Assembly: GCA_044359815.1 (NCBI GenBank)
Contig: JBIKLL010000002.1
Coordinates: 32,001-96,000, forward strand
Direction: 5' to 3'
DNA: 64,000 nt
Source: Pseudobdellovibrionaceae bacterium
GTDB taxonomy: Bacteria; Bdellovibrionota; Bdellovibrionia; Bdellovibrionales; Bdellovibrionaceae
Both the position numbers and the translations under genes were made by a program. The notes beneath the pieces are model-generated. The model was not told the origin of the DNA. It did not search any database and was given only the letters and a program-made list of their open reading frames with translations. This document shows, piece by piece, positions 15,314 to 50,298 of this stretch. Numbering within the stretch: the stretch's first letter is position 1; every line of letters begins with the position of its first letter.

Positions 15314-15449
15314 GAAAAAACCCCAAAGACAAGGCGCAGAGATAGTGAAAACCGAGGCAGTTCAAAGCGCCAGTGGCGCTTTGATTGATAAGTCGCAGGT
15401 TTGAGCTATCGAATGCAACGATGTATTTGGGGTTTTGTCGAGTGGCGGA
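15304..15449. repeat. Palindromic element E2 fused to the tRNA-Ser CCA end
   Basis: 15304-15327 and 15426-15449 form a 24-bp inverted repeat with 1 mismatch; inner hairpin TCAAAGCGCCA-g-TGGCGCTTTGA. Confidence 0.85.
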
Positions 15450-15532
15450 GAGAGAGGGATTCGAACCCTCGAAGCCCGCGAAGGCTTGCCAGTTTTCAAG
15501 ACTGGTGTATTCAACCGCTCTACCATCTCTCC
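15443..15532 (-). tRNA. tRNA-Ser(UGA)
   Basis: GGAGAGATGGTAGAGCGGTTGAATACACCAGTC-TTGAAA-ACTGGC...GAGGGTTCGAATCCCTCTCTCTCCGCCA. 90 nt, long variable arm, anticodon TGA, encoded CCA. Confidence 0.97.
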
Positions 15533-24380: not shown

Positions 24381-26087
24381 TTAGCTGCCGCCACCGCTCA
24401 TGCTGGTCAGAAAGGCTTGGTTGGTTTTTGCCTGTTGAATTTTATCAGTCAAAAATTCCATAGCATCAACGACATTCATTGGTGCTAATACTTTTCGTAA
24501 AATCCACAAACGATTCAGATCCGCTTTTTCGATCAACAAATCTTCTTTTCGAGTTCCGGATTTATTAATGTCCATACAAGGGAAGATTCTTTTTTCCATC
24601 AGCTTTCTGTCCAAATGAATTTCAGAATTACCTGTTCCTTTGAATTCTTCGAAAATCACTTCATCCATTCTGGATCCAGTGTCGATCAATGCAGTTGCGA
24701 TAATCGTCAAGCTTCCGCCTTCTTCGATATTCCTAGCTGCACCAAAAAATCTTTTTGGTTTGTGTAAAGCATTTGAATCCACACCACCAGACAAGATCTT
24801 GCCGCTTGGTGGAACGACTGTGTTGTAGGCTCGAGCTAAACGAGTGATTGAATCTAACAAAATAACCACATCATGTTTGTGCTCAACCAGTCTCTTGGCT
24901 TTTTCCAATACCATTTCGGCAACCTGTACGTGGCGTGTAGGTGGCTCATCAAATGTTGAACTGATAACTTCGCCCTTCACAGATCTGAGCATGTCAGTAA
25001 CTTCCTCTGGTCGCTCGTCGATTAATAAGACAATCAGTTTTACCTCGGGGTGATTGACCGAAATTGCATTGGCAATATTTTGCAATAAAACTGTTTTTCC
25101 CGTTCTGGGTGGAGCAACAATTAAAGCCCTTTGACCTTTACCCAGTGGGGCCATCAGATCCACAACTCGGGTCGTGAAGTCCGTTGGATTGTGTTCAAGC
25201 TTTAAACGTTCATTGGGATAAAGCGGTGTTAAGTTATCAAATAAAATTTTATCTTTAGCCGCTTCTGAACTTTCGAAATTTAGCGAGTCTACTCGGGTTA
25301 AAGCAAAATACCTTTCACCCTCTTTAGGTGGGCGAACTGTGCCCGTAATTGTATCACCTGTTCTGAGGCCAAATTTTCTGATCTGTGAAGGTGAAACGTA
25401 AATGTCATCTGGACCTGGCAGATAATTGTAATCAGGCGATCTCAGAAATCCGTAACCATCTGGCAGAATTTCTAAAACACCTGAGCCGTAAATATCACCC
25501 AATCTGGCAGCACGTTTTAGAATTTCAAATACCATGTCCTGTCTGCGAAGACCGGCTGCATTTTCAATTTTCAATTTAATGGCAAGCTCAGTAAGCTGTT
25601 GGATGTTTTTTGTTTTTAGATCCTTAGAGCTTAACCAAGTTTTTTCCTCTTCGCTCAGATTAATATCTGCTAAATCAACCTCTGGCTCGTTAGAAGCTTG
25701 TTGGACAGGTGGCATTGATTCAGATTCATCTTGATAATGCTTGTTGCGATCGTTTCTGTCGTTTCTGAAATCCCTTCGATTGTTATTGTTTCTGAAATCA
25801 CGATTGTTGCGTTTATCAAAATAACGATGGCGGTTGTTAGTGCCTTCTCGATTATTAGTGTTGTTTTCTCGTCTGGGAGCTTCTTCACGAACTTCGGTTT
25901 TTTGTGCTGGAGGCACCGCTGCTGCTTGAGGTTTTGTAGTTTCAGCTGGTGTTGATGCTTCCACTTTGTGTTCTGGTGATTCTGATTTTTCGGATTTAGA
26001 TTCTGAATCTTTTTTGGAAGTTTTGGTTTCTACAACTTTTTTAGGCTTCTTTTTTGAACCTTCGACTTCTTCTTTTGAGTCTGACAA
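24381..26087 (-). CDS. rho: Transcription termination factor Rho with long N-terminal extension
   Basis: TTG start with [52 protein letters not shown]. Confidence 0.98.
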
Positions 26088-32690: not shown

Positions 32691-32972
32691 CTAAACAACA
32701 GGGGGAACAGTAAATAAATTGCCAGTTTTTTCAGGCGCGTTGGCCAACATTTCATCAGTCGAATAAGACTTTTTGTCTTCGTCGGGGCGCCAAAAGGCTT
32801 CAATGTCAGTTGGTGTCACAAGAGGTTCAATGTTGTCTGTTTTAATTTCAGAAACTTGTTCAAAATATTTTAAAATGCTAGATAATTGGTCGGCATATTG
32901 GCTGGATTCCTCATCGGTGATTTTGAGTCTGGCCAATTTTGCAATGTGTGAAACATCTTTTTTGTCGATCAC
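32691..32972 (-). CDS. gatC: Asp/Glu-tRNA amidotransferase subunit C
   Basis: GTG start after GGAGG; HIAKLARL...LANAP...F.VP.V. Confidence 0.93.
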   Translation of the reverse strand: MIDKKDVSHIAKLARLKITDEESSQYADQLSSILKYFEQVSEIKTDNIEPLVTPTDIEAFWRPDEDKKSYSTDEMLANAPEKTGNLFTVPPVV

Positions 32973-33025
32973 AATTGTCCTCCGTGTTGATATGGAATTT
33001 TGCAAAATCTATGGATAAAGGCTTG

Positions 33026-35071
33026 ATGAGTAAAAGTAAAGAGAAACCATCTGAAAAATCAATATCTTCAGATATCATAAATAAACACGAAGAATTAAAA
33101 AAACTTATTAGGGAACACGATTATAATTATCATGTCCTGGATAAGCCGATGATTTCTGATTATGCCTTTGATCAATTATTTCAAGAATTGCTGGAACTGG
33201 AAACCAATAATCCAGGATTAGGTTTAATGGATTCGCCTTCTCAAAGGATTGGTAGCCAACCATTGGAAGCCTTTAATAAGGTTGAACACCGCACCCCAAT
33301 GTTGAGTCTGTCAAACAGCTATTCCCCAGAGGAAATTTTAAAGTTTGATGAAAGGGTGAAAGCTTTTTTGAAATCCGAAGAGCCCCTTCAGTATTATTGT
33401 GAACCCAAGTTTGATGGTTTAGCTTTGGAACTGGTTTACGAAGAAGGCTTGCTGGTCAGAGCCCTTACCAGAGGTGATGGCAATGTTGGTGAGGACGTCA
33501 CTCTGAATGTAAAGACCATCAGAACTATCCCACTGGTACTGAATATGAAAACTGCACCGAAGCTTTTTGAAGTACGTGGTGAAGCTCTGATGTTCAAAGA
33601 AGATTTTAAAGAACTGAATGAGTCCCAAGAAGAGCTAGGTCTGCAAATATTTGCCAACCCCCGAAATGCAGCGGCTGGTACTATACGCCAATTAGATTCA
33701 GCCATCACTGCCAGCCGACCATTGAAGTTTTTTGCTTACGCTATTGGGGTTACTGATGATTTGAATTTTAAATCACAGATGGATTTAGGGGAATTTTTTC
33801 TGAAGGCTGGGCTTCCTGTTGTCGAGAAATTTAAAAATCAAAAGCTCAGAATGATTTGCAATGGGCCCACAGAAGTTATCGAATTCTATCACTCCATAGA
33901 AAAAATTCGTGAATCCCTGCCGTTTGAAATCGACGGAGTTGTTGTTAAGGTTAACAGTCTAAGGCTGCAAGACGACCTGGGGTTGGTAGCCAGAAGCCCC
34001 AGATGGGCAACAGCTGCAAAATACAAACCGGCTGAAGCCAGAACAGTGATTGAATCCATTGATGTTCAAGTCGGTCGTACAGGAACGCTAACACCCGTTG
34101 CCGTTATGAAGCCTGTGAAAGTTGGCGGGGTCACTATAACGAATGCGACTCTGCATAACCAAGAAGAAATTGATCGCAAAGATGTTAGGGTCGGGGACGC
34201 CGTTATTGTTCATCGAGCGGGTGATGTTATCCCAGAAGTTGTGTCTGTGATTTTGTCTGAACGTCCGAAAAATTCTACTCCCTTTAAGCTTCCCAACCAT
34301 TGCCCGGTTTGCGGCGAAAAGGCGGTGCGGTTCGAGGAAGAAGTGGCTCTTAGGTGCGTGAATTCAACCTGTCCTGCGATTTTAAAAGAATCGTTGAAAC
34401 ATTTTGTGTCCAGAAGGGCCATGAACATAGACAAGGTTGGAGACAGATTGATTGAAACTTTGGTTGATCAAAAACTGGTGAAATGTTTTTCTGATTTATA
34501 TAAATTAAAATCAGATCAACTGTTGGCCCTGGATCGTCAGGGTGAAAAATCCGTTCAGAATGTTTTGTCCAGCATCAAAAAAAGCCAGCAGACACAGTTA
34601 TCACGGTTTATCCATGCACTAGGTATACGTTTTGTTGGCGAACAAACTGCAAAATTATTGGCTGCACATTATGGGACCATGGATGAGTTTTTAGGATCTA
34701 CCGAGGAAGAATTATTGAAAGTTCCCGAGGTCGGACCAAAAGTTGCCAAGGCCATTTTGGATTGGATTAGAAATCCCAAAAATAAAAAAGAAGTTAACGA
34801 GCTTTTAATAAGCGGTGTTAAAATCATCACTGTTTCCAAAAAGCAGGATGGTCCTTTTAATGGAAAAAGTTTTTTGATCACTGGAACCTTACCCGTTAAA
34901 CGAGATGAAGCTCAGGATTGGATTGAAAAAAATGGTGGAAAAATCTTGAGCTCTGTTTCATCAAAGCTAGATTTCTTAGTGGTCGGAGACGATCCGGGCT
35001 CTAAGTTAATTAAAGCCCAGTCTTTAGGTTTAAAAATTATTTCTTGGGATGAACTGAAAAAAATGATCTAG
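33026..35071 (+). CDS. ligA: NAD-dependent DNA ligase
   Basis: EPKFDGLA, FANPRNAAAG, VGRTGTLTP, Cys4 zinc finger, HhH motifs, C-terminal BRCT. Start at 33026 or 33011. Confidence 0.98.
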   Translation: MSKSKEKPSEKSISSDIINKHEELKKLIREHDYNYHVLDKPMISDYAFDQLFQELLELETNNPGLGLMDSPSQRIGSQPLEAFNKVEHRTPMLSLSNSYSPEEILKFDERVKAFLKSEEPLQYYCEPKFDGLALELVYEEGLLVRALTRGDGNVGEDVTLNVKTIRTIPLVLNMKTAPKLFEVRGEALMFKEDFKELNESQEELGLQIFANPRNAAAGTIRQLDSAITASRPLKFFAYAIGVTDDLNFKSQMDLGEFFLKAGLPVVEKFKNQKLRMICNGPTEVIEFYHSIEKIRESLPFEIDGVVVKVNSLRLQDDLGLVARSPRWATAAKYKPAEARTVIESIDVQVGRTGTLTPVAVMKPVKVGGVTITNATLHNQEEIDRKDVRVGDAVIVHRAGDVIPEVVSVILSERPKNSTPFKLPNHCPVCGEKAVRFEEEVALRCVNSTCPAILKESLKHFVSRRAMNIDKVGDRLIETLVDQKLVKCFSDLYKLKSDQLLALDRQGEKSVQNVLSSIKKSQQTQLSRFIHALGIRFVGEQTAKLLAAHYGTMDEFLGSTEEELLKVPEVGPKVAKAILDWIRNPKNKKEVNELLISGVKIITVSKKQDGPFNGKSFLITGTLPVKRDEAQDWIEKNGGKILSSVSSKLDFLVVGDDPGSKLIKAQSLGLKIISWDELKKMI

Positions 35072-35262
35072 ATATGATCAATATTGATATCGCGAGCCAT
35101 AACGGTTTTACGTCCGTCTTCTTTGGCATTATCGATACCTTTTGAGCAAAGTGCTTCGATTGCTTTGCTGAGTACATCAATAGTCTCAGATGATGTATTC
35201 ATTGAGCCTTTTTCTTTGATGTATTTCTTAACTTTACTTGTCACAACTAATACGTCAGCCAT
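35068..35262 (-). CDS. Bacterial histone-fold protein (Bd0055/HBb-like singlet)
   Basis: MADVLVVTSKVKKYIKEKGSMNTSSETIDVLSKAIEALCSKGIDNAKEDGRKTVMARDI. Helix-loop-long helix with the A...GRKTV...D histone signature; strong AAGGAGGA RBS. Confidence 0.92.
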   Translation of the reverse strand: MADVLVVTSKVKKYIKEKGSMNTSSETIDVLSKAIEALCSKGIDNAKEDGRKTVMARDINIDHI

Positions 35263-35354
35263 GTTTCCTCCTTATGTCCAGGCGCCTGATGGTTTTTAAA
35301 ACCATTTCCACAAAAGGTTGTCACAACACGCTTATATTTACAATGGGATTCAAT

Positions 35355-36824
35355 TTAACGGGTTTTGCGCTCTGAGCTAGACTTCTTTCTGGGCTTACCA
35401 AGAGACCCAAAAGACTTTTCTCCATCAAAAATTTGAAGCGACGCCCTGCGCTGATTGTTGTCGCCAGGCTCAATCCACACAAAAGTTTTTGAATCGATCA
35501 TTTTTGTGCATTCAACGTCAGTAAAAGCCGGCGACCAAGTGCCGCTGTTCAAATGTTCAACTGCCCCAATCATTTCATGTCGTGATTTATGTGTGTGCCC
35601 GTAAACAATTCTGTTCACTTTTGTGATCGTGCCAGCCATTGATAATATTCGTTCATCGGGCTCTTTGTATGAAGACACCATCGACACTACAGATTTCGAA
35701 TAAAACAGAAAAAACGGCAACAGTATAAACAATGGGATAAATGCCCAAAAAAATGGTAAATCAAAAAAATTCTGAGCAAAAAGCATCAACTGAAAGATCA
35801 CAAAAAATCCAATAAAAATCAAAAAAGCCCTATCAAGCCACAACTCCCGAGCAATCATAAAAGGATTGTTGGTGGCCGGTTCAACAAAGAGTTCCTTAAG
35901 TTCCCTAACCATTCTGGGCTCTGCATTTGATTTGTGAGCAATATAATTAATTTTATCTTCGATCTTCAATGGATCACGAATAGGGGAATTCCATTTCTCG
36001 GTGAAGCCTTTCATTAGGGTGACCACGGCTCCAAAAAACCAATCCCATATTAACAATGGCTGAGCCCGCCAAATATATTTAATAAAGAATGCGACGTATT
36101 CGCCCAAACTCATAATGTAATTTGAATCCACATGGGGATTAAAAAATCCCATGCCGTTTAAAATATACCTGCAAGCCAAATTTCCAAAGGGCAGTCTGAT
36201 AGATTTAAAATTATAGCCTCGTATAAAGGGATGCACTGGATCTTCGCAAATACAATAAGGGTCGTATTGATTGCCATGTTCAATCAAAGTGTCTTTGTTA
36301 CTAATATAAAACCATTCGCAAAATCTGACTCTGGATTTTTCTTTCTCTTTCAAATCCAATGCATTGACTATGGATTCCTGAACTTCTGAATAATGTAGCT
36401 CAAGATCGTGATTGCCAAAAACAAAGACCAGTTTATGGCCTCGTTTTACAAAATCACTAAGAGCTTTAAACCAAATCGGATGATCTTTGATAATTGCATC
36501 AATCTTGTATTTTGAGCGCTCAGGGCGTGGATACAGTCCACGAATTTGTTCAAGCCATGTTACCCTAAAGGTCGGATGTTCCGGTATTGTGGTAATGGAA
36601 TCAAAATCAAAAATGTCTCCATTTAATATTAGTTCGATGGGATCAGTGCCAGCGCGTTTTTCCAGATGAAATAAAAAATCGCTGAAGGCCTGATCAAAGA
36701 AAAAATCCGCGGATTTATATTTCTTCCACAATGGAAACTTAGGATTCAGAGGTTCTGCCTCACATAAATGCAGATCGCTGACTATTGCTGTGAAATCTGC
36801 CTTAAGAAATTCATTGTGGGCCAT
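35355..36824 (-). CDS. Calcineurin-like metallophosphoesterase with internal TM hairpin
   Basis: SDLH, LNGDIFD, GNHD, EHG, GHTH motifs; two hydrophobic helices before GHTH; start MAHNEF at 36824. Confidence 0.85.
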   Translation of the reverse strand: MAHNEFLKADFTAIVSDLHLCEAEPLNPKFPLWKKYKSADFFFDQAFSDFLFHLEKRAGTDPIELILNGDIFDFDSITTIPEHPTFRVTWLEQIRGLYPRPERSKYKIDAIIKDHPIWFKALSDFVKRGHKLVFVFGNHDLELHYSEVQESIVNALDLKEKEKSRVRFCEWFYISNKDTLIEHGNQYDPYCICEDPVHPFIRGYNFKSIRLPFGNLACRYILNGMGFFNPHVDSNYIMSLGEYVAFFIKYIWRAQPLLIWDWFFGAVVTLMKGFTEKWNSPIRDPLKIEDKINYIAHKSNAEPRMVRELKELFVEPATNNPFMIARELWLDRAFLIFIGFFVIFQLMLFAQNFFDLPFFWAFIPLFILLPFFLFYSKSVVSMVSSYKEPDERILSMAGTITKVNRIVYGHTHKSRHEMIGAVEHLNSGTWSPAFTDVECTKMIDSKTFVWIEPGDNNQRRASLQIFDGEKSFGSLGKPRKKSSSERKTR

Positions 36825-36882
36825 ATCCTTCATTATATTTATGTTTGATGATAAATGAATACTTTTGTGATAATAATTTTCT

Positions 36883-38169
36883 ATGCTCAAATTGAATTCA
36901 ATACCAAGACCAATTGCCATAATAGGTATGGGCCTGTCGGGTGAAGCCAGTCTTAAATTTTTAATCGAATCTGGAGTTCCGAGGAATGAAATCATCACCT
37001 TTGATGATCGGGGAATTGGTGCAGATGTCTCGGATCGAAATCAAATGGCTGCAATTAAAATCGGATGCATAGTTTTATCCCCAGGCGTTGCAATAAAATC
37101 AGATTTTGTACAAGGCCTACTGAGTGCTGGTGCCAAACTACTGTCCGAAGTTCAACTAGCATATGATTTAATCACTTCAGAAAAACTGATTGCAGTTACT
37201 GGGTCGTTGGGAAAGAGCACGACCACCAGCATGATTGGACAGGCGGCCAAAACTCAGGACCCCAATTGTTTTGTGGGTGGAAACTTGGGCCTGCCATTTA
37301 TAGAATATTTTCGTCATCTGATAAAACATCCAGATAAAAAGGCTCGGTTTATTGTACTGGAGCTTTCAAGCTTTCAGATCGAAGCTCTGCAAAACTTCAG
37401 AACCGATTGTTTGGTTTATACTTATTTGAGTAAAAATCACTTAGATCGCTACACTTCTGTGCAAGAATACTATGATTCCAAGTGGGCACTGACCCAATGG
37501 AACAAGGGCAAGATTTTTGTTAACCAAAAGGGTGGCGATCTGTTGGAGTACATAAAAAATAGACCCGAGGCAGTTTCAATAGTAAACATGGATTCTGCCG
37601 AAGGATTGCAAAAGTTTGGAATCTCTAAATTAAATGTTTTTGGAAAACACAATCTACAAAACGCAGCCCTGGCGTGCGAAGTCGCAAAATTTTTCGGTTG
37701 GAGCAATCAAGCATTCGAAGCCATTGCCAATTACAAGGGATTGAAGCACAGGCTGGAAACGGTCGCCGAAATTGGCGGAAAATTATTTATTAACGACAGT
37801 AAAGCCACTTCAATTGAATCAGTGCTGGCGGCGATTCACAGTCTGCGCGAAACATCCAGGCCACTACGAGTTTTAGTGGGTGGCAAGGACAAGGGTCTTG
37901 ATTGGACCCTGCTGGCTCCATTTGCAAAAACGAAAATTCAGTTTTATTTTTTTGGAGCTGACGGTGAATTTGTGAAACAAAAGTCAGGACTGAATGGATT
38001 AGTTTATAAAAAACTTTCTGATTGCTTAAGCTCCATCAAACCCATGATTCAAAAAGGCGATGTGATATTACTGGCTCCCGGTGGGACCAGTTTAGACGAA
38101 TTTAAATCATTTGAAGACCGGGGAGATTTTTTTAAATCTTGGGTTTTTACATTTCAAAATGAGCCTTGA
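36883..38169 (+). CDS. murD: UDP-N-acetylmuramoyl-L-alanine--D-glutamate ligase
   Basis: GMGLSG, SPGV, VTGSLGKSTTT, GGNLG, ELSSFQ, NHLDRY, HRLE, NDSKAT, S.DEFKSFEDRG. Confidence 0.93.
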   Translation: MLKLNSIPRPIAIIGMGLSGEASLKFLIESGVPRNEIITFDDRGIGADVSDRNQMAAIKIGCIVLSPGVAIKSDFVQGLLSAGAKLLSEVQLAYDLITSEKLIAVTGSLGKSTTTSMIGQAAKTQDPNCFVGGNLGLPFIEYFRHLIKHPDKKARFIVLELSSFQIEALQNFRTDCLVYTYLSKNHLDRYTSVQEYYDSKWALTQWNKGKIFVNQKGGDLLEYIKNRPEAVSIVNMDSAEGLQKFGISKLNVFGKHNLQNAALACEVAKFFGWSNQAFEAIANYKGLKHRLETVAEIGGKLFINDSKATSIESVLAAIHSLRETSRPLRVLVGGKDKGLDWTLLAPFAKTKIQFYFFGADGEFVKQKSGLNGLVYKKLSDCLSSIKPMIQKGDVILLAPGGTSLDEFKSFEDRGDFFKSWVFTFQNEP

Positions 38170-44599: not shown

Positions 44600-46888
44600 T
44601 TATTCCATCAGACGTGACAGATCATTAACCAAAACTTGACGCGGTTTGCTTCCGTTAGCCGGTCCAACCACACCCTCGCGTTCAAAAGTCTCTATCAGCC
44701 TGGCTGCGCGGGGATACCCTAGGCTAAATCGCCTTTGTATTAGGGAAGCGCTGATTTCCCGTTGGCTTGCTGCCCATTGTAAGATCTCATCATATCTTTC
44801 ATCGTATTCTTCCTCGGATGAGTCACCATCAAAACCCAGAGAATCAGATCCTGAGCTGCCTTGCTCCATTGCCTTGATTGCAGTCAGATCAAATTGCGGC
44901 TCGGCCTGATCTGACCAGAATTCAGTCACAGCTTTAATATCAGAGTCTTTTAAAAATGGTCCGTGGTGCCTGACTAACTGAGAATTTCCCGGGCTCTTAT
45001 AAAGCATATCCCCTTGGGCCAACAGTCTTTCCCCACCTGTTTCATCCAAAATAATTCTGGAATCCATACCCGAGTTAACTTTGAAACTGATCCTTCCAGG
45101 TATGTTGGTTTTGATCAATCCTGTTACGACTTCTTTACGAGGACTCTGCATAGCTAGTATCAAGTGTATGCCGCAAGCTCGAGCCATTTGGGCCAATCGG
45201 ACAACTGCAGATTCAACATTAGCTTTATCCACCGCCATCAGATCGCCAAATTCCTCAACCACAATCACTATGTAAGGCAATTGATTGAAATAATATTGTT
45301 CGCCTTTTTTGCCAGGAGTGTTTTCAAATTCTTCATTAGTAGCTTCGTGCTGTTTCAGTTCATCAGCAGTCAGTTTGGACACAGATTCATTAAAAGCTTC
45401 CAGACCGCGAGCCGAAAATCGACTCATAGATCGATAGCGTTTTTCCATTTCCTTAACGGCCCACTTAAGCGCAATAACAGCTTGTTTTGGATCTATCACA
45501 ATAGGCATGGCTAAATGGGGAACTTCTTCAAATGCCGCTAGGTCTACCTGTTTAGGGTCTACCAAAATTAATTTTAAGGTTTTTGGAGAATGCTTAAACA
45601 ACAAACCTGTTATTGCAGACACAGTGAACACTGATTTGCCAGAACCCGTAGTGCCCGCAACCATCAGATGAGGGATTTTTCTGAGATCAACAATTTTTGG
45701 ATCACCGTTAGCCTGTTTGCCCAAAGCCAACGGCAGCTTCATTTCGTCTTTCCAAAATTCTTCCTCTGCCAATAGGTCCTTCAGATAAACTGTTTCACGT
45801 TGCAGGTTAGAAGTTTCAATTCCAACCACGTCACGACCTGGGATCGGAGCAATTATTCTGAGCGATTCACTGCTTAGCGCCAGTGCTAAATCATCCTCAA
45901 GTTCAGTGATTTTGCTGACCCGAACATTGGCTTCTGGTTTGAATTCAAACATCGTCACTGCGGGACCTGGTTTTGCCGCAACGACTTCACCCATCACGGA
46001 AAACTGTGACAACTTGTCGGTTAACAGATCGGCTTTTTTGCGAATCTCGCGCTCGTCTAGCTTAATTCTGCTTGCGGGCGGGTCTTCGATCAAACCAAGC
46101 TTTGGCAGTTCCCAGTTTTCAATCTTAGTCTGTATTTTGGTTTTCAGAGTCACTTTGCGCCGCTGATTGGGTTCAATATTTATTGGCTCGACAAACTGTT
46201 CTTGAATATTTGGCTTAACGGTTTTCACTTCACTCAATGGAAAGTCTGGCTGTTTTTCCAGAGGTCTTTCGATCGGTTTAACTTGAGGGATATTGACGAT
46301 TGATTTAGCAGATTTTGGTTTTTGAATTTTTATAAATTTTATCGATTTAAATTTCCCAAAAACAGAGGCTAATAATCCAGAGAATGAACCCTCAAAAATC
46401 ATTAGCAAACATACTGAAAAAACGCCCCAAACAAATATTTGTGCTCCGATTTTATTTAAGAATAACACCAGAATCTTTGCAACAGCCCACCCAGTGACTC
46501 CACCAATTAAAATATGATCTTGCAGAATTCTTTGTTCAGGCAAATAAATCGAACTGGCTGTGCTGATTAAAACCGTGAATACCACAGTCCATCCCAGCTT
46601 GTTGCCAAGGTTTTCATTTTTGCTTTTCAATAATCCAATGACTCCAATCCAAAAAAACACACACACCGAGATCCAGGCAGAGGCACCAAAAAGCTGCAAC
46701 AGGGCATCACTTAAAAAGCTTCCCACATAGCCACAAAGGTTTTTGGGTGAGCTCATAATATTACCAATTGAGTTGATGGAAGGATCCTTGGGGTTGTAAC
46801 TGATCAATGAAGCTGAAACAAAAATAGTCGAAGCAATAATTACTAGGCTAAAAATATCGGACTTTACTCGGTTGAAAAGCTTACTCAT
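44600..46888 (-). CDS. ftsK: DNA translocase FtsK
   Basis: N-terminal TMs, PHLMVAGTTGSGKS, RLAQMARACGIHL, GERLLAQGDML, gamma domain S.SLIQRRFSLGYPRAARL; start MSKLFN at 46888. Confidence 0.96.
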   Translation of the reverse strand: MSKLFNRVKSDIFSLVIIASTIFVSASLISYNPKDPSINSIGNIMSSPKNLCGYVGSFLSDALLQLFGASAWISVCVFFWIGVIGLLKSKNENLGNKLGWTVVFTVLISTASSIYLPEQRILQDHILIGGVTGWAVAKILVLFLNKIGAQIFVWGVFSVCLLMIFEGSFSGLLASVFGKFKSIKFIKIQKPKSAKSIVNIPQVKPIERPLEKQPDFPLSEVKTVKPNIQEQFVEPINIEPNQRRKVTLKTKIQTKIENWELPKLGLIEDPPASRIKLDEREIRKKADLLTDKLSQFSVMGEVVAAKPGPAVTMFEFKPEANVRVSKITELEDDLALALSSESLRIIAPIPGRDVVGIETSNLQRETVYLKDLLAEEEFWKDEMKLPLALGKQANGDPKIVDLRKIPHLMVAGTTGSGKSVFTVSAITGLLFKHSPKTLKLILVDPKQVDLAAFEEVPHLAMPIVIDPKQAVIALKWAVKEMEKRYRSMSRFSARGLEAFNESVSKLTADELKQHEATNEEFENTPGKKGEQYYFNQLPYIVIVVEEFGDLMAVDKANVESAVVRLAQMARACGIHLILAMQSPRKEVVTGLIKTNIPGRISFKVNSGMDSRIILDETGGERLLAQGDMLYKSPGNSQLVRHHGPFLKDSDIKAVTEFWSDQAEPQFDLTAIKAMEQGSSGSDSLGFDGDSSEEEYDERYDEILQWAASQREISASLIQRRFSLGYPRAARLIETFEREGVVGPANGSKPRQVLVNDLSRLME

Positions 46889-47016
46889 CGTGTAATAGTT
46901 TATTAAGAATCCTAGGCGGTTGAGTAGCCCAGATCCTGCCCATGCTTGACTTTGGTCGTTAGATATCAAAAAACCAGGCCTCTGTAGGTGTGTAAGGTGA
47001 GTGGGTGCGTTCAATT

Positions 47017-47707: not shown

Positions 47708-48007
47708 ATGACACCAAATCTAAACCACTCTGAAAATCTTTTCGTAGCAAATCTTCAATCGGTCAGCTTGGAAAAGCTGGTAAAGAGTAAGTTAGAGGTT
47801 TTATTTCAACAACAACAAGAAGCTCAGGTTGAGCTTAATGGTTTGTACAACATAGTTCTTGAACAGGTTGAGCGCCCATTGCTGGAAATCGCTTTACGGG
47901 CTTACAATGGCAATCAGGTTAAGACAGCTCAAATGCTTGGTATCAATCGCAACACACTTAAGAAGAAAATTGACAACTACAAGATCCGCGTAAAGAAAAT
48001 GAATTAA
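47708..48007 (+). CDS. fis: Fis-family DNA-binding protein
   Basis: LYNIVLEQVERPLL...GNQVKTAQMLGINRNTLKKKI helix-turn-helix. Confidence 0.88.
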   Translation: MTPNLNHSENLFVANLQSVSLEKLVKSKLEVLFQQQQEAQVELNGLYNIVLEQVERPLLEIALRAYNGNQVKTAQMLGINRNTLKKKIDNYKIRVKKMN

Positions 48008-48112: not shown

Positions 48113-49528
48113 ATGGCACAAAGGGTACCTCCACACAATCACGAGGCTGAACAAGCAATCTTGGGAAGCCTTCTCATTGAACAAAACGCTTGGGATCAAG
48201 TCTCTGACAGCATCACTGCTGAAGATTTTTATCGTCCTGGTCACAACAAATTATACGCCACAATCAAAGAGCTTCATAACAAAGGTGAACCTGTTGATTT
48301 AATCACGCTGACTAACCATTTGCAGTCTAAGGGTGAGTTGGATTCTGTGGGTGGGGCCGGTTATTTGGTTGAATTGGTCAACAAGACTATTTCATCAGCT
48401 AACATCATGTACTATGCAAAAATCGTCAAAAACAAATCCACTTTGCGAAGATTGATTTTCGAAAGCTCCAAATTGATCGAGAGGGCCTACAGCGAAGAGT
48501 TTGATGAAATCGATGTCTTCCTGGATGAAGCTGAAATGGCTTACTATAAGCTCAATGAGGGGCAACAAACACAGGGCCTAGTTGGCTCGATGGAAATCGT
48601 TAAAGCCAGTATCGTAAAAATCGAAGAACTTTATAAAAACAGATCCGAGATCACTGGAGTCCCAACGGGATTCGCTCAATTGGATCGAATGACTTCAGGA
48701 TTACAGGCTGGAGATTTTGTGATCGTAGCAGCCAGACCTTCCATGGGAAAAACCGCGTTCAGTTTGAATCTGGTGCAAAATATAATTGCCAATCCCAAGA
48801 TGACGGCAGCTTACTTTTCATTGGAAATGAGTCGTGAGGCCGTGATGATGAGGCTTCTGGCCGCTGAAGCCAATATTAATTTAAAAGACATTCGTTCAGG
48901 CAAGCTTAACGATTCTGCATGGCCAAAACTGATAGCTGGTGCCAGCAAGCTGAGCGAAGCAAAATTATTTATTGATGAATCGGCCGCGATCAGCCCTTTT
49001 GAAGTCCGATCAAAATGCCGCAGACTAAAGGCTCAACACGGTTTGGATATTATCATCATAGATTATTTGCAGATGATGGATTTGAAACAACGGGTGGAAA
49101 GCCGCGAAAGAGCAGTGTCTGAGATTTCCAGAACCCTGAAGGGCCTTGCTAAAGAACTTAAGATTCCTGTGGTGGCATTAGCCCAGCTTAATCGGGGAGT
49201 TGAAGGCCGTTCAGATCGCAGACCTATGCTTTCAGATTTACGGGAATCAGGATCGATTGAACAAGATGCTGACGTTATCATGATGCTCTATCGAGAAGAT
49301 TATTACGATAAAGAATCGGCAGAAAAACAAGGTTTAGCAGAAGTCATCATTGGCAAACAAAGAAACGGTCCTACCGGCACCGTGAAATTAAAATGGGAAG
49401 CTGAGTTTGGTCGATTCAGAGATGCTGACCCTGAGGGTTGGGCTCCGCCTCCGCCGCCTCCGCAACCACAATATGGTGGTGGCGGTGGATTCAAACCAAA
49501 AAACTTTGCCCCAGGCGCCGGCGCTTAA
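48113..49528 (+). CDS. dnaB: Replicative DNA helicase
   Basis: PPHNHEAEQAILG, AARPSMGKT, IDYLQ, QLNR, DLRESGSIEQDAD, KQRNGPTG; Pro/Gly-rich tail. Confidence 0.98.
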   Translation: MAQRVPPHNHEAEQAILGSLLIEQNAWDQVSDSITAEDFYRPGHNKLYATIKELHNKGEPVDLITLTNHLQSKGELDSVGGAGYLVELVNKTISSANIMYYAKIVKNKSTLRRLIFESSKLIERAYSEEFDEIDVFLDEAEMAYYKLNEGQQTQGLVGSMEIVKASIVKIEELYKNRSEITGVPTGFAQLDRMTSGLQAGDFVIVAARPSMGKTAFSLNLVQNIIANPKMTAAYFSLEMSREAVMMRLLAAEANINLKDIRSGKLNDSAWPKLIAGASKLSEAKLFIDESAAISPFEVRSKCRRLKAQHGLDIIIIDYLQMMDLKQRVESRERAVSEISRTLKGLAKELKIPVVALAQLNRGVEGRSDRRPMLSDLRESGSIEQDADVIMMLYREDYYDKESAEKQGLAEVIIGKQRNGPTGTVKLKWEAEFGRFRDADPEGWAPPPPPPQPQYGGGGGFKPKNFAPGAGA

Positions 49529-49640: not shown

Positions 49641-50150
49641 CTATCGCATTGATAGGTTTTTACGATTTGATTTGATGCTGTCATCAGCCAATTCAACACC
49701 CAGATCCTTGAGTTTTTGTTTGATGGCTGTGTTTTTAGAACAAACACTTAAAATTGATTTTTTATTAATCTGAAATTGAGCTTCGTCGCCACCTTGAAAA
49801 GTAGTCGCAGCAGTCACGATATCAACCATAGCATCCAAATTGTTAATTGATTCATTTAATGTTGCATTGGCATCAGTAATATTTTTATTGGGCAGATAGT
49901 AGAAACCTTCTGATGAAAATATAGTTCTGGAGTTATCTTGCTTCATCAAATAGCCATCTACTGAAAACACAGGACCGTCTTTGCTGATCAAATTAATTTT
50001 ACCCTTCAAGTTTTCAGAATTTTCAGCGATAAAATTCAAACATTTAACCATGGACTTTTCATGGTCTTTTGCGGACTCTGTTGCCACTGCGAAAGCACTG
50101 GTTAATGAGGTCATTGCGAAAAGTGTGATTTTAAATATTTGTGTTTTCAT
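49641..50150 (-). CDS. Hypothetical exported protein
   Basis: Likely start MKTQIF at 50150; signal peptide (AFA); two Cys. Confidence 0.65.
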   Translation of the reverse strand: MKTQIFKITLFAMTSLTSAFAVATESAKDHEKSMVKCLNFIAENSENLKGKINLISKDGPVFSVDGYLMKQDNSRTIFSSEGFYYLPNKNITDANATLNESINNLDAMVDIVTAATTFQGGDEAQFQINKKSILSVCSKNTAIKQKLKDLGVELADDSIKSNRKNLSMR

Positions 50151-50298
50151 ACCTTTTGTTAATGCAATCTGTTTGCCAGTCGAAATCAAAACCTTAGCCT
50201 AGGTTGATGTAAATATTGTTGCCAGATGTAGTTAAAAGACTGACACCTAGTCAATATGAGACAAACATTAAGTCCTGATTTTGACTGGGGATTAACCG

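Follow-up and report, generated by a model that had tools for sequence, protein, structure and literature searches.

The question raised by this locus is whether a 64-aa open reading frame (ORF) that ends directly against the DNA ligase gene ligA encodes a histone and, if it does, how that histone would act on DNA. The locus is part of a 64,000-nt stretch of contig JBIKLL010000002.1 from a Pseudobdellovibrionaceae bacterium, and this whole stretch is referred to here as the window. An initial annotation, made from the sequence, proposed a histone very close to Bd0055 (HBb) of Bdellovibrio bacteriovorus. The gene is very probably the main histone of this Bdellovibrionaceae bacterium, an ortholog of Bd0055/HBb in the "bacterial dimer" branch, whose product would bind DNA as a dimer without regard to sequence. 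It is a fresh member of a family that was already described in 2023-2025, in a clade where it is expected. The source assembly, with an estimated completeness of 91%, totals 2.95 Mb over 125 contigs; the window has a G+C content of 40.4% and was found in lake-water metagenome runs.

Identity of the gene

The ORF was recovered on the minus strand of the window with the sequence quoted in the initial annotation. It starts with ATG at 35262..35260 and ends in TAG (Table 1). The near-perfect Shine-Dalgarno sequence that had been described, AAGGAGGA, is found 3 bases before the ATG. A search of PDB chains matched residues 1-64 to 8FVX/8FW7 at E 1.4e-28 and to 8CMP/9EZZ/9F0E at E 1.6e-28, which are two depositions of Bd0055/HBb. 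BLASTP against the B. bacteriovorus locus encoding the Bd0055 sequence gave 52/64 identical residues (81%) with 0 gaps. The likeness to Bd0055 stated in the initial annotation extends over the full length and is accompanied by the same fold and the same neighbourhood as in named Bdellovibrio genomes.

The ORF was compared with related loci, which are the best 80 of at least 282 confirmed relatives in species-representative genomes; together with the window they make up 81 sequences. All of the 80 come from Bdellovibrio isolates or from metagenome-assembled genomes labelled Bdellovibrionales, Pseudobdellovibrionaceae, Oligoflexia, or with older Proteobacteria-type names. The start is Met in 81/81 sequences and the length is 64 aa in 80/81. 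Identity of the histone to these orthologs is 78-86% (median 83%), against 51-66% for ligA and 49-69% for the upstream gene in the same loci. The median nonsynonymous (dN) and synonymous (dS) rates are 0.127 and 1.85, with a median dN/dS of 0.074, for the 49 of 80 pairs with a defined dS, the other 31 being saturated. The ORF is a conserved coding gene and not a chance frame.

The TAG of ligA occupies 35069..35071 and the stop of the histone is the complement of 35068..35070, so that the two genes share a CTAG and the spacer between them is 0 nt. This overlap, which the initial annotation had pointed out, is crossed with 0 differences by other lake-water metagenome contigs (run X3 record 3, 34660..35917; run X5 record 15, 34932..35543). 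Since independent metagenome contigs bridge the junction, the overlap is not an artefact of a single assembly.

The category of bacterial dimer histones is defined in PMC11390915 (Schwab et al. 2024) by sequence clustering with HBb, to which the window histone is 81% identical over 64/64 residues at E 1.4e-28. Its fold is that of the category, with an alpha3 cut to 3-4 residues and a short alpha2: in the model, alpha2 would span residues 25-48 (24 residues) and alpha3 a single turn at 56-58. The RKTxxxD stretch with its RD clamp is present (R51-K52-T53-V54-M55-A56-R57-D58, with D49), as are the helix-1 lysines and the S-K pair (S9-K10, K12 and K16). In the archaeal and eukaryotic nucleosomal type, alpha2 ends with a His and alpha3 makes three turns; the window histone has Glu48 and one turn. 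The face-to-face (FtF) type, that of HLp and HTkC, carries R49, N53 and R55 (HLp numbering), of which only the equivalent of R55 (R51) is kept, N45 and D49 standing in place of R49 and N53.

The profile and BLAST searches called for by the initial annotation gave a strong match to Bd0055 and a score just above the cut-off for CBFD_NFYB_HMF. The Pfam Histone profile (16.4 bits against a cut-off of 26.4) and DUF1931 both stayed under their cut-offs for the window histone. Because general profiles are marginal, the assignment rests on the specific match to HBb. Generic profiles score far weaker than that match, which would explain the uneven naming of the family in databases. The 90% cluster of the Bd0055 sequence holds entries named hypothetical protein, histone H3/H4, histone-like protein, CBF/NF-Y/archaeal histone domain protein and NFYB/HAP3 subunit. 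The expectation that such genes are usually called hypothetical therefore fits some members of the cluster, while others are named as histones, histone-like proteins or NFYB/HAP3 subunits. The exact sequence of the window histone is on record as a nameless singleton cluster of 5 contigs.

Distribution in relatives

A histone-fold match is present in 40/40 relatives examined, and 38/40 have a full-length 64-aa ortholog at 66% identity or more. The two others (G014, which is 72% complete, and G036) have the longer paralog type only. In an even sample of the phylum, 266/301 genomes contain a histone-fold match, including 247/273 high-quality genomes and 37/37 of the same family; in each of two families of this sample the match was found in 0/7 genomes. 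A Bd0055 homologue has been reported in 67% of Bdellovibrionota genomes (PMC10627809, Hocher et al.).

Predicted structure and DNA-binding residues

An AlphaFold2 model built from 44 aligned sequences has a mean pLDDT of 85.8 and consists of a helix at residues 2-19, a loop at 20-24, a helix at 25-48, a loop at 49-55 and one turn at 56-58. This agrees with the helices and loops read from the sequence in the initial annotation and corresponds to a histone fold with a truncated alpha3. The absence of a predicted histone fold had been named as grounds for giving up the proposal; the fold is present, and its best matches in the PDB are HBb. In a Foldseek search the top five are HBb/Bd0055 entries (TM 0.74-0.81, E 2.5e-6 to 1.9e-5), followed by Leptospira HLp, archaeal HTkC, and then archaeal and eukaryotic histones.

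The model of a homodimer scored 0.89, compared with 0.00 for the best of 3 controls, with a contact agreement of at least 98% and a partner pLDDT of at least 92. This mark was attained by 20/30 proteins solved as same-chain pairs and by 1/23 solved as single chains. The lowest-error predicted contacts are L1-L2 pairs (22-24 with 53-54) and antiparallel alpha2 pairs (31/35/38/39). Since a dimer of an 81%-identical protein is already solved and may be remembered by the model, the result is a likeness and not independent proof.

The DNA-binding residues of HBb have been published. One interface comprises K12, T23, S24, A25, K52, T53 and R57, and a second comprises T8, S9 and K10 (PMC11317129, Hu et al.). 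The main DNA contacts in simulation are N22, R57, S9, T53, T8, S24, K10, K12, K52 and K16; the clamp is D49-R51-D58 and the dimer core is V11, L31, I35, L38 and I59 (PMC11317129). All ten main contacts, the clamp and the dimer-core residues are kept in the window histone. Among the interface residues A25 alone differs, being Ser in the window histone and in 11/81 sequences. Nine contact residues (K16 was outside the tally) together with D49, R51, D58 and I59 are invariant in the 81 sequences, and the R51-D58 RKTxxxD stretch, S9-K10 and K12 are recorded as invariant in the same set.

The residues associated with higher-order assembly are missing. The combination of A48H, S45F and I61L makes Bd0055 a DNA-wrapping protein (PMC10627809, Hocher et al.); the window histone has E48, N45 and I61 at these positions, so that 0/3 are in the archaeal state. 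The FtF dimer-dimer residues are also absent, with N45 at HLp R49 and D49 at HLp N53, in a protein whose homodimer model reaches the score given above.

Proposed mechanism

By orthology with HBb, two histone chains would pair as an antiparallel histone-fold handshake dimer, and each end of the dimer would join L1 of one chain (N22, T23, S24) to L2 of the other (K52, T53). The dimer would be an abundant, sequence-independent DNA binder that bends or coats DNA. In B. bacteriovorus, Bd0055 ranks 12th of 2,125 proteins by abundance and is the top protein in the nucleoid fraction, and no deletion was obtained (PMC10627809). HBb is a dimer that bends DNA and binds genome-wide without sequence preference, and single dimers bend DNA by ~84 degrees over 36 bp in an HU-like manner (PMC11317129). 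Nucleosome-like wrapping is not expected from the window histone because it lacks the tetramer residues (Glu48 and not His; N45 and D49 for HLp R49 and N53).

Within this dimer frame, the DNA is probably bent by ~80-90 degrees at physiological occupancy, as described for HBb and HU (PMC11317129). A dense end-on coat on straight DNA (PMC10627809) is a doubtful candidate for the main cellular state. Either mode may be adopted, depending on the protein-to-DNA ratio. Transcription probably starts from a promoter of its own in the 92-nt spacer in front of the gene, which has what appears to be a strong ribosome-binding site, and the presence of dnaA ~49 kb away on the same strand would fit high expression of the histone.

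The initial annotation concluded that the organism has histone-based chromatin. The orthology to Bd0055/HBb is consistent with such a role, while the histone appears to be added to the usual bacterial set. The genome encodes four HU/IHF-family genes beside the histone and a small Fis-family gene; therefore, the window histone is one nucleoid protein among several.

Several observations weigh against a Bd0055-like, DNA-bending dimer expressed from its own promoter. The match to CBFD_NFYB_HMF is marginal (21.7 bits against a cut-off of 21.4, residues 28-60 only), and NCBIfam archaea_histone scores 29.8, which is below its cut-off of 50. Position 48 controls tetramerisation in archaeal histones, and Glu48 occurs in 1/81 sequences, that of the window; the others have Ala (65), Ser (9), Asn (3), Gln (2) or Thr (1), and Glu48 might bear on dimer-dimer contacts. 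The computed isoelectric point (pI) of 7.86 makes the window histone less basic than B. bacteriovorus Bd0055 (8.85). A scan of 34700..35700 for consensus sigma-70 promoters gave 0 sites where 2.1 are expected, and the proposed -10 hexamer fits the consensus at 2/6 positions. The two published modes of DNA binding by Bd0055/HBb, an end-on sheath (PMC10627809) and bending (PMC11317129), disagree. According to a 2025 preprint, the in vivo role of Bd0055 is still unknown, and the chromosome of E. coli is reported not to be compacted by Bd0055 (bioRxiv 10.1101/2025.09.24.678257).

Alternative explanations

The possibility that there is no gene at all, but a fortuitous frame on the strand opposite the end of ligA in an AT-rich genome, or else a contaminant contig, has its origin in the many chance ORFs of 40-90 aa in a window of 40% G+C and in an assembly of 125 contigs at 91% completeness. 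It is already refuted, with next to no probability left to it. Against it stand a match at E 1.4e-28 to a solved protein, the median dN/dS of 0.074 and the constancy of start (81/81) and length (80/81). The gene order is that of named Bdellovibrio genomes, dnaA is on the same contig at a conserved distance, and independent metagenome runs carry the identical junction. A further alternative takes the gene as real and its product as a histone-fold protein off chromatin duty, such as a subunit of a specific transcription factor or a partner of DNA ligase. Some members of the Bd0055 cluster bear the name "NFYB/HAP3 family transcription factor subunit" in databases, 67/80 loci keep the pairing with ligA, and Schwab et al. 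caution that prokaryotic histone-fold proteins need not all organise genomes (PMC11390915). Nevertheless, the gene is convergent to ligA and most relatives have a terminator between the two (33/40 spacers of 30-140 nt), hence there is no operon with the ligase. DNA affinity purification sequencing of the ortholog showed genome-wide binding with no motif (PMC11317129). The contact residues reach the DNA backbone only. A structural role would agree with how extremely the protein is conserved and with how abundant the ortholog is. A function away from chromatin is therefore very improbable.

The remaining alternative concerns the way in which the dimer meets DNA. Dimers could contact DNA end-on at one L1-L2 site each and assemble into a genome-protecting sheath of ~1 dimer per 2.5 bp on straight DNA, with cohesion from exchange of N-terminal tails and from contacts between a basic ridge and an acidic underside. 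Such a sheath is supported by the crystal structure of Bd0055 with 35-bp DNA, ladders in electrophoretic mobility shift assays, an ultracentrifugation estimate above 60 dimers per 147 bp and the lack of Förster resonance energy transfer (FRET) between DNA ends (PMC10627809). The N-terminal M-A-(D/E)-V-L-V-V is nearly invariant in the 81 sequences (ADVL in the window), and the extra acidic residues of the window histone (E48, D44 and D3, pI 7.86) would if anything reinforce the acidic face. The solution data for HBb favour separate bending dimers, with compaction in tethered-particle assays, ligase circularisation, no protection from micrococcal nuclease and a second DNA interface at T8-S9-K10 (PMC11317129). 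Removal of four N-terminal residues also left the FRET behaviour of Bd0055 in vitro unchanged (PMC10627809). A sheath is rather unlikely, and separate sequence-independent dimers remain the preferred reading of the window histone.

Gene order and genomic position

The histone gene starts 92 nt after the end of a metallophosphoesterase gene on the same strand and runs towards ligA (Table 1). A convergent ligA is found no more than 2.5 kb downstream in 67/80 loci; among the 13 loci without one, 5 offer less than 2.5 kb of downstream sequence. In 61/80 loci the metallophosphoesterase is encoded upstream, on the histone strand. The order phosphoesterase, histone and convergent ligA is conserved, and the window histone is in its ancestral genomic position. 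The statement of the initial annotation that the gene is embedded among DNA-metabolism genes applies to ligA, the conserved convergent neighbour; the other close neighbours are the membrane metallophosphoesterase, a Mur-ligase-family gene and gatCAB. FtsK, Fis and DnaB, described as nearby, are all encoded in the window and are not adjacent to the histone.

The dnaA gene is on the same contig as the histone (G000:C33:116053-116541, minus strand), 48.8 kb away on the same strand and outside the window. In five complete or near-complete relatives of two families, dnaA is 39-48 kb from the histone, again on the same strand. The position near dnaA is therefore kept, since a distance of 39-49 kb and the same strand are found in 6/6 genomes checked. 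In Bdellovibrio, oriC lies beside dnaA. If oriC adjoins dnaA here as well, the dosage of the histone gene would rise during multi-fork growth. The main texts of PMC10627809 and PMC11317129 make no mention of the synteny, the ligA neighbour or the origin.

Table 1. Positions of the histone gene, its signals and other features (window coordinates unless a contig or locus is named)
Feature	Position	Strand	Basis
Histone gene, Bd0055/HBb ortholog, "bacterial dimer" alpha3-histone type	35068..35262	-	ORF, PDB match, BLASTP, Pfam, AlphaFold model, Foldseek
Shine-Dalgarno sequence AAGGAGGA, 3 bases 5' of the histone ATG	35266..35273	-	Sequence reading
CTAG common to the histone TAG (minus) and the ligA TAG (plus)	35068..35071	.	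Sequence; bridged by X3/X5 contigs
Promoter-like TTGTAA-N14-TG-A-CAACCT-T (-35-like hexamer, extended -10 TG, weak -10), 51 nt before ATG	35314..35343	-	Pattern in relatives
ligA, NAD-dependent DNA ligase, 710-aa ORF, convergent neighbour	32939..35071	+	Pfam adenylation, OB, zinc-finger, HhH, BRCT
547-aa calcineurin-like phosphoesterase-domain protein, C-terminal half hydrophobic (by eye)	35355..36998	-	Pfam Metallophos E 1.7e-6
FtsK	44600..47014		Window gene annotation
Fis-family HTH_8 protein of 99 aa, flanked by a radical-SAM gene and dnaB	47708..48007	+	Domain match
DnaB	48113..49528		Window gene annotation
rho	24381..26087	-	Rho_N from residue 156
158-aa protein, Cys/His-rich N-terminal half and C-terminal histone fold	G000:C51:2230-2406; locus L002 1198..1674	+	56% identity to window histone
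65-aa histone singlet	G000:C99:38513-38707; locus L003 1480..1677, also L095 1501..1698	+	PDB 9qt0 match

Translation of ligA probably begins ~25-30 codons into the ORF as listed, because the matches in relatives only set in near residue 41-51. Elsewhere in the window, rho has an N-terminal extension of ~150 residues ahead of its Rho_N domain. A 182-aa ORF at 49641..50189 on the minus strand has a borderline match to the MksE condensin subunit (27.6 bits against a cut-off of 27) and could belong to an MksBEF condensin locus adjoining dnaB.

Transcription signals

The region upstream of the histone contains a promoter-like site (Table 1). The corresponding pattern, TTGTCA-N13-15-TGn-(A/C)AA..CT, occurs in 38/81 histone upstream regions, the window included, compared with a mean of 0.025 in 200 shuffles; this count is descriptive only, because the pattern was written after viewing the same related sequences. 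The bipartite pattern usually ends 28-39 nt before the ATG across relatives. The leader of the window histone is ~15 nt longer than those of the relatives and holds a palindrome, ATGGTTTT-T-AAAACCAT (35289..35305), which is not seen in the other 80. The 66-nt leader, in which the palindrome folds, is no more stable than shuffles (z 0.42). An Rfam search over the full window returned one tRNA only (15446..15532) and nothing near the histone gene.

The initial annotation noted no terminator between the histone and ligA, and this holds because there is no spacer. A terminator scan picked up a single weak site within ligA, ~100 nt farther along (34968..34949, minus strand), a yield that shuffled sequences match, and a stricter scan over 275 nt found none. 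The spacer, which is zero in the window, measures 30-140 nt in 40/67 loci with ligA and 1-18 nt in three loci. In 33/40 of the longer spacers the histone strand shows a hairpin with a U-run after it, and 25 of these also have an A-run before the stem. The combination of A-run, hairpin and U-run suggests a shared two-way terminator in relatives. This usually bidirectional histone/ligA terminator has been lost in the window genome. Since the stops overlap, transcription of the histone would continue, in antisense, into the part of ligA that encodes BRCT, and transcription of ligA would enter the histone gene, unless Rho stops them.

A single RNA-library run contained part of the window (X24, a freshwater-sediment metatranscriptome, 0.06 of sampled words), and it yielded one 259-nt contig over 35295..35543. 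The contig covers spacer sequence plus the 3' end of the upstream gene and not the coding sequence of the histone, and is therefore silent on histone expression. A 151-nt metagenome contig (run X4, record 9) matches the 5' end of the histone (35198..35263) with 6 differences and diverges upstream. A related strain or species with a different histone leader thus appears to be present in the same sample type.

Two further histone-fold genes

The genome has two more histone-fold genes, one on contig C51 and one on contig C99 (Table 1). The C51 protein appears from its sequence to have the layout of the ZZ histones (Bd3044 type), a group that includes the second histone of B. bacteriovorus according to PMC11390915. 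A ZZ domain was not recognised by Pfam in its N-terminal half. Long forms like the C51 protein appear in many relatives.

The best solved relative of the C99 histone is HLp (PDB 9qt0) at E 5.7e-9. At the positions of HLp R49, S52, N53, R55, T61 and F63, as listed in PMC12701072, the C99 histone has R, A, N, R, H and F. It thus retains R, N and R at R49, N53 and R55, the trio described as conserved in FtF histones. Among the relatives, 6/40 have an ortholog of the C99 histone at 55-63% identity, and R, N, R and F are kept in 5/5 of those fetched. An apparently longer Lys-rich N-terminal tail is seen in 4/5 of the fetched orthologs, as given by open frames and not by mapped starts. The FtF histones are placed in the sister class Bacteriovoracia in PMC11390915.

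It is conceivable, as a tentative proposal, that this lake-water Bdellovibrionaceae runs a three-histone chromatin, with an HBb-type bending dimer carrying a lineage-specific Glu48, the ZZ-finger type from C51 and the HLp-like histone from C99. If the C99 histone does form wrapping tetramers and is co-expressed with the dimer, a single Bdellovibrionia bacterium would contain both a bending and a wrapping histone.

Significance

The finding is mainly confirmatory. The structure and function of HBb-type histones have been on record since 2023, and published work already covers the family, how it is built and binds DNA, and its wide occurrence in Bdellovibrionota (PMC10627809, PMC11317129, PMC11390915). 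HBb is nearly unchanged in an uncultured freshwater relative of much lower G+C (~80% identity, dN/dS ~0.07), which fits a sequence-independent, dosage-critical architectural role. The locus makes small additions to what is known of bd0055 regulation and of histone diversity in predatory bacteria: the gene order, the ~40-50 kb distance to dnaA, the shared promoter-like motif, the lost bidirectional terminator and the third, HLp-like histone gene.

Comparison with known systems

The closest known system is Bd0055/HBb of B. bacteriovorus HD100 (PDB 8FVX, 8FW7, 8CMP, 9EZZ, 9F0E). Both proteins have 64 aa and align at 81% identity with no gaps; alpha2 is shorter by one turn than that of archaeal histones, and alpha3 consists of one turn. 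The main DNA contacts, the D49-R51-D58 clamp and the S9-K10 motif are common to both, and the upstream phosphoesterase, the convergent ligA and the distance to dnaA are alike. The window histone differs by 12 substitutions, including A48E (unique among the 81), S45N, L14Y, Q20S and V60N. The window is ~40% G+C, compared with 50.5% reported for HD100, and the histone stop overlaps that of ligA, whereas in most relatives a spacer with a terminator separates the two.

HLp of Leptospira perolatii (PDB 9QT0-2) shares the fold with a truncated alpha3, an RKTV-type L2 and non-specific backbone binding. The window histone matches it with a Foldseek TM of 0.68-0.76 at 38% identity and a sequence E of 5.6e-6. 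HLp is an FtF tetramer formed through R49, S52, N53, R55, T61 and F63 that wraps ~60 bp, as stated in PMC12701072, whereas in the window histone N45 and D49 take the places of HLp R49 and N53. The archaeal histones HMfA, HMfB and HTkA have the handshake dimer, the L1-L2 DNA grip and the RD clamp in common with the window histone, at E 0.03-0.1 and a Foldseek TM of ~0.48. The window histone differs from them in having Glu48 for the tetramer His, a shorter alpha2 and an alpha3 of one turn instead of three. The sprocket arginine is absent in the HBb family (PMC10627809). Because the tetramer His and, in the family, the sprocket arginine are absent, alpha2 is shorter and alpha3 is one turn, a hypernucleosome is not expected for the window histone.

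HU and IHF are likewise small, abundant, dimeric and sequence-independent DNA benders, and HBb behaves in an HU-like manner in tethered-particle assays (PMC11317129). Their fold is unrelated, and in this genome the histone adds to the four HU/IHF genes and does not replace them.

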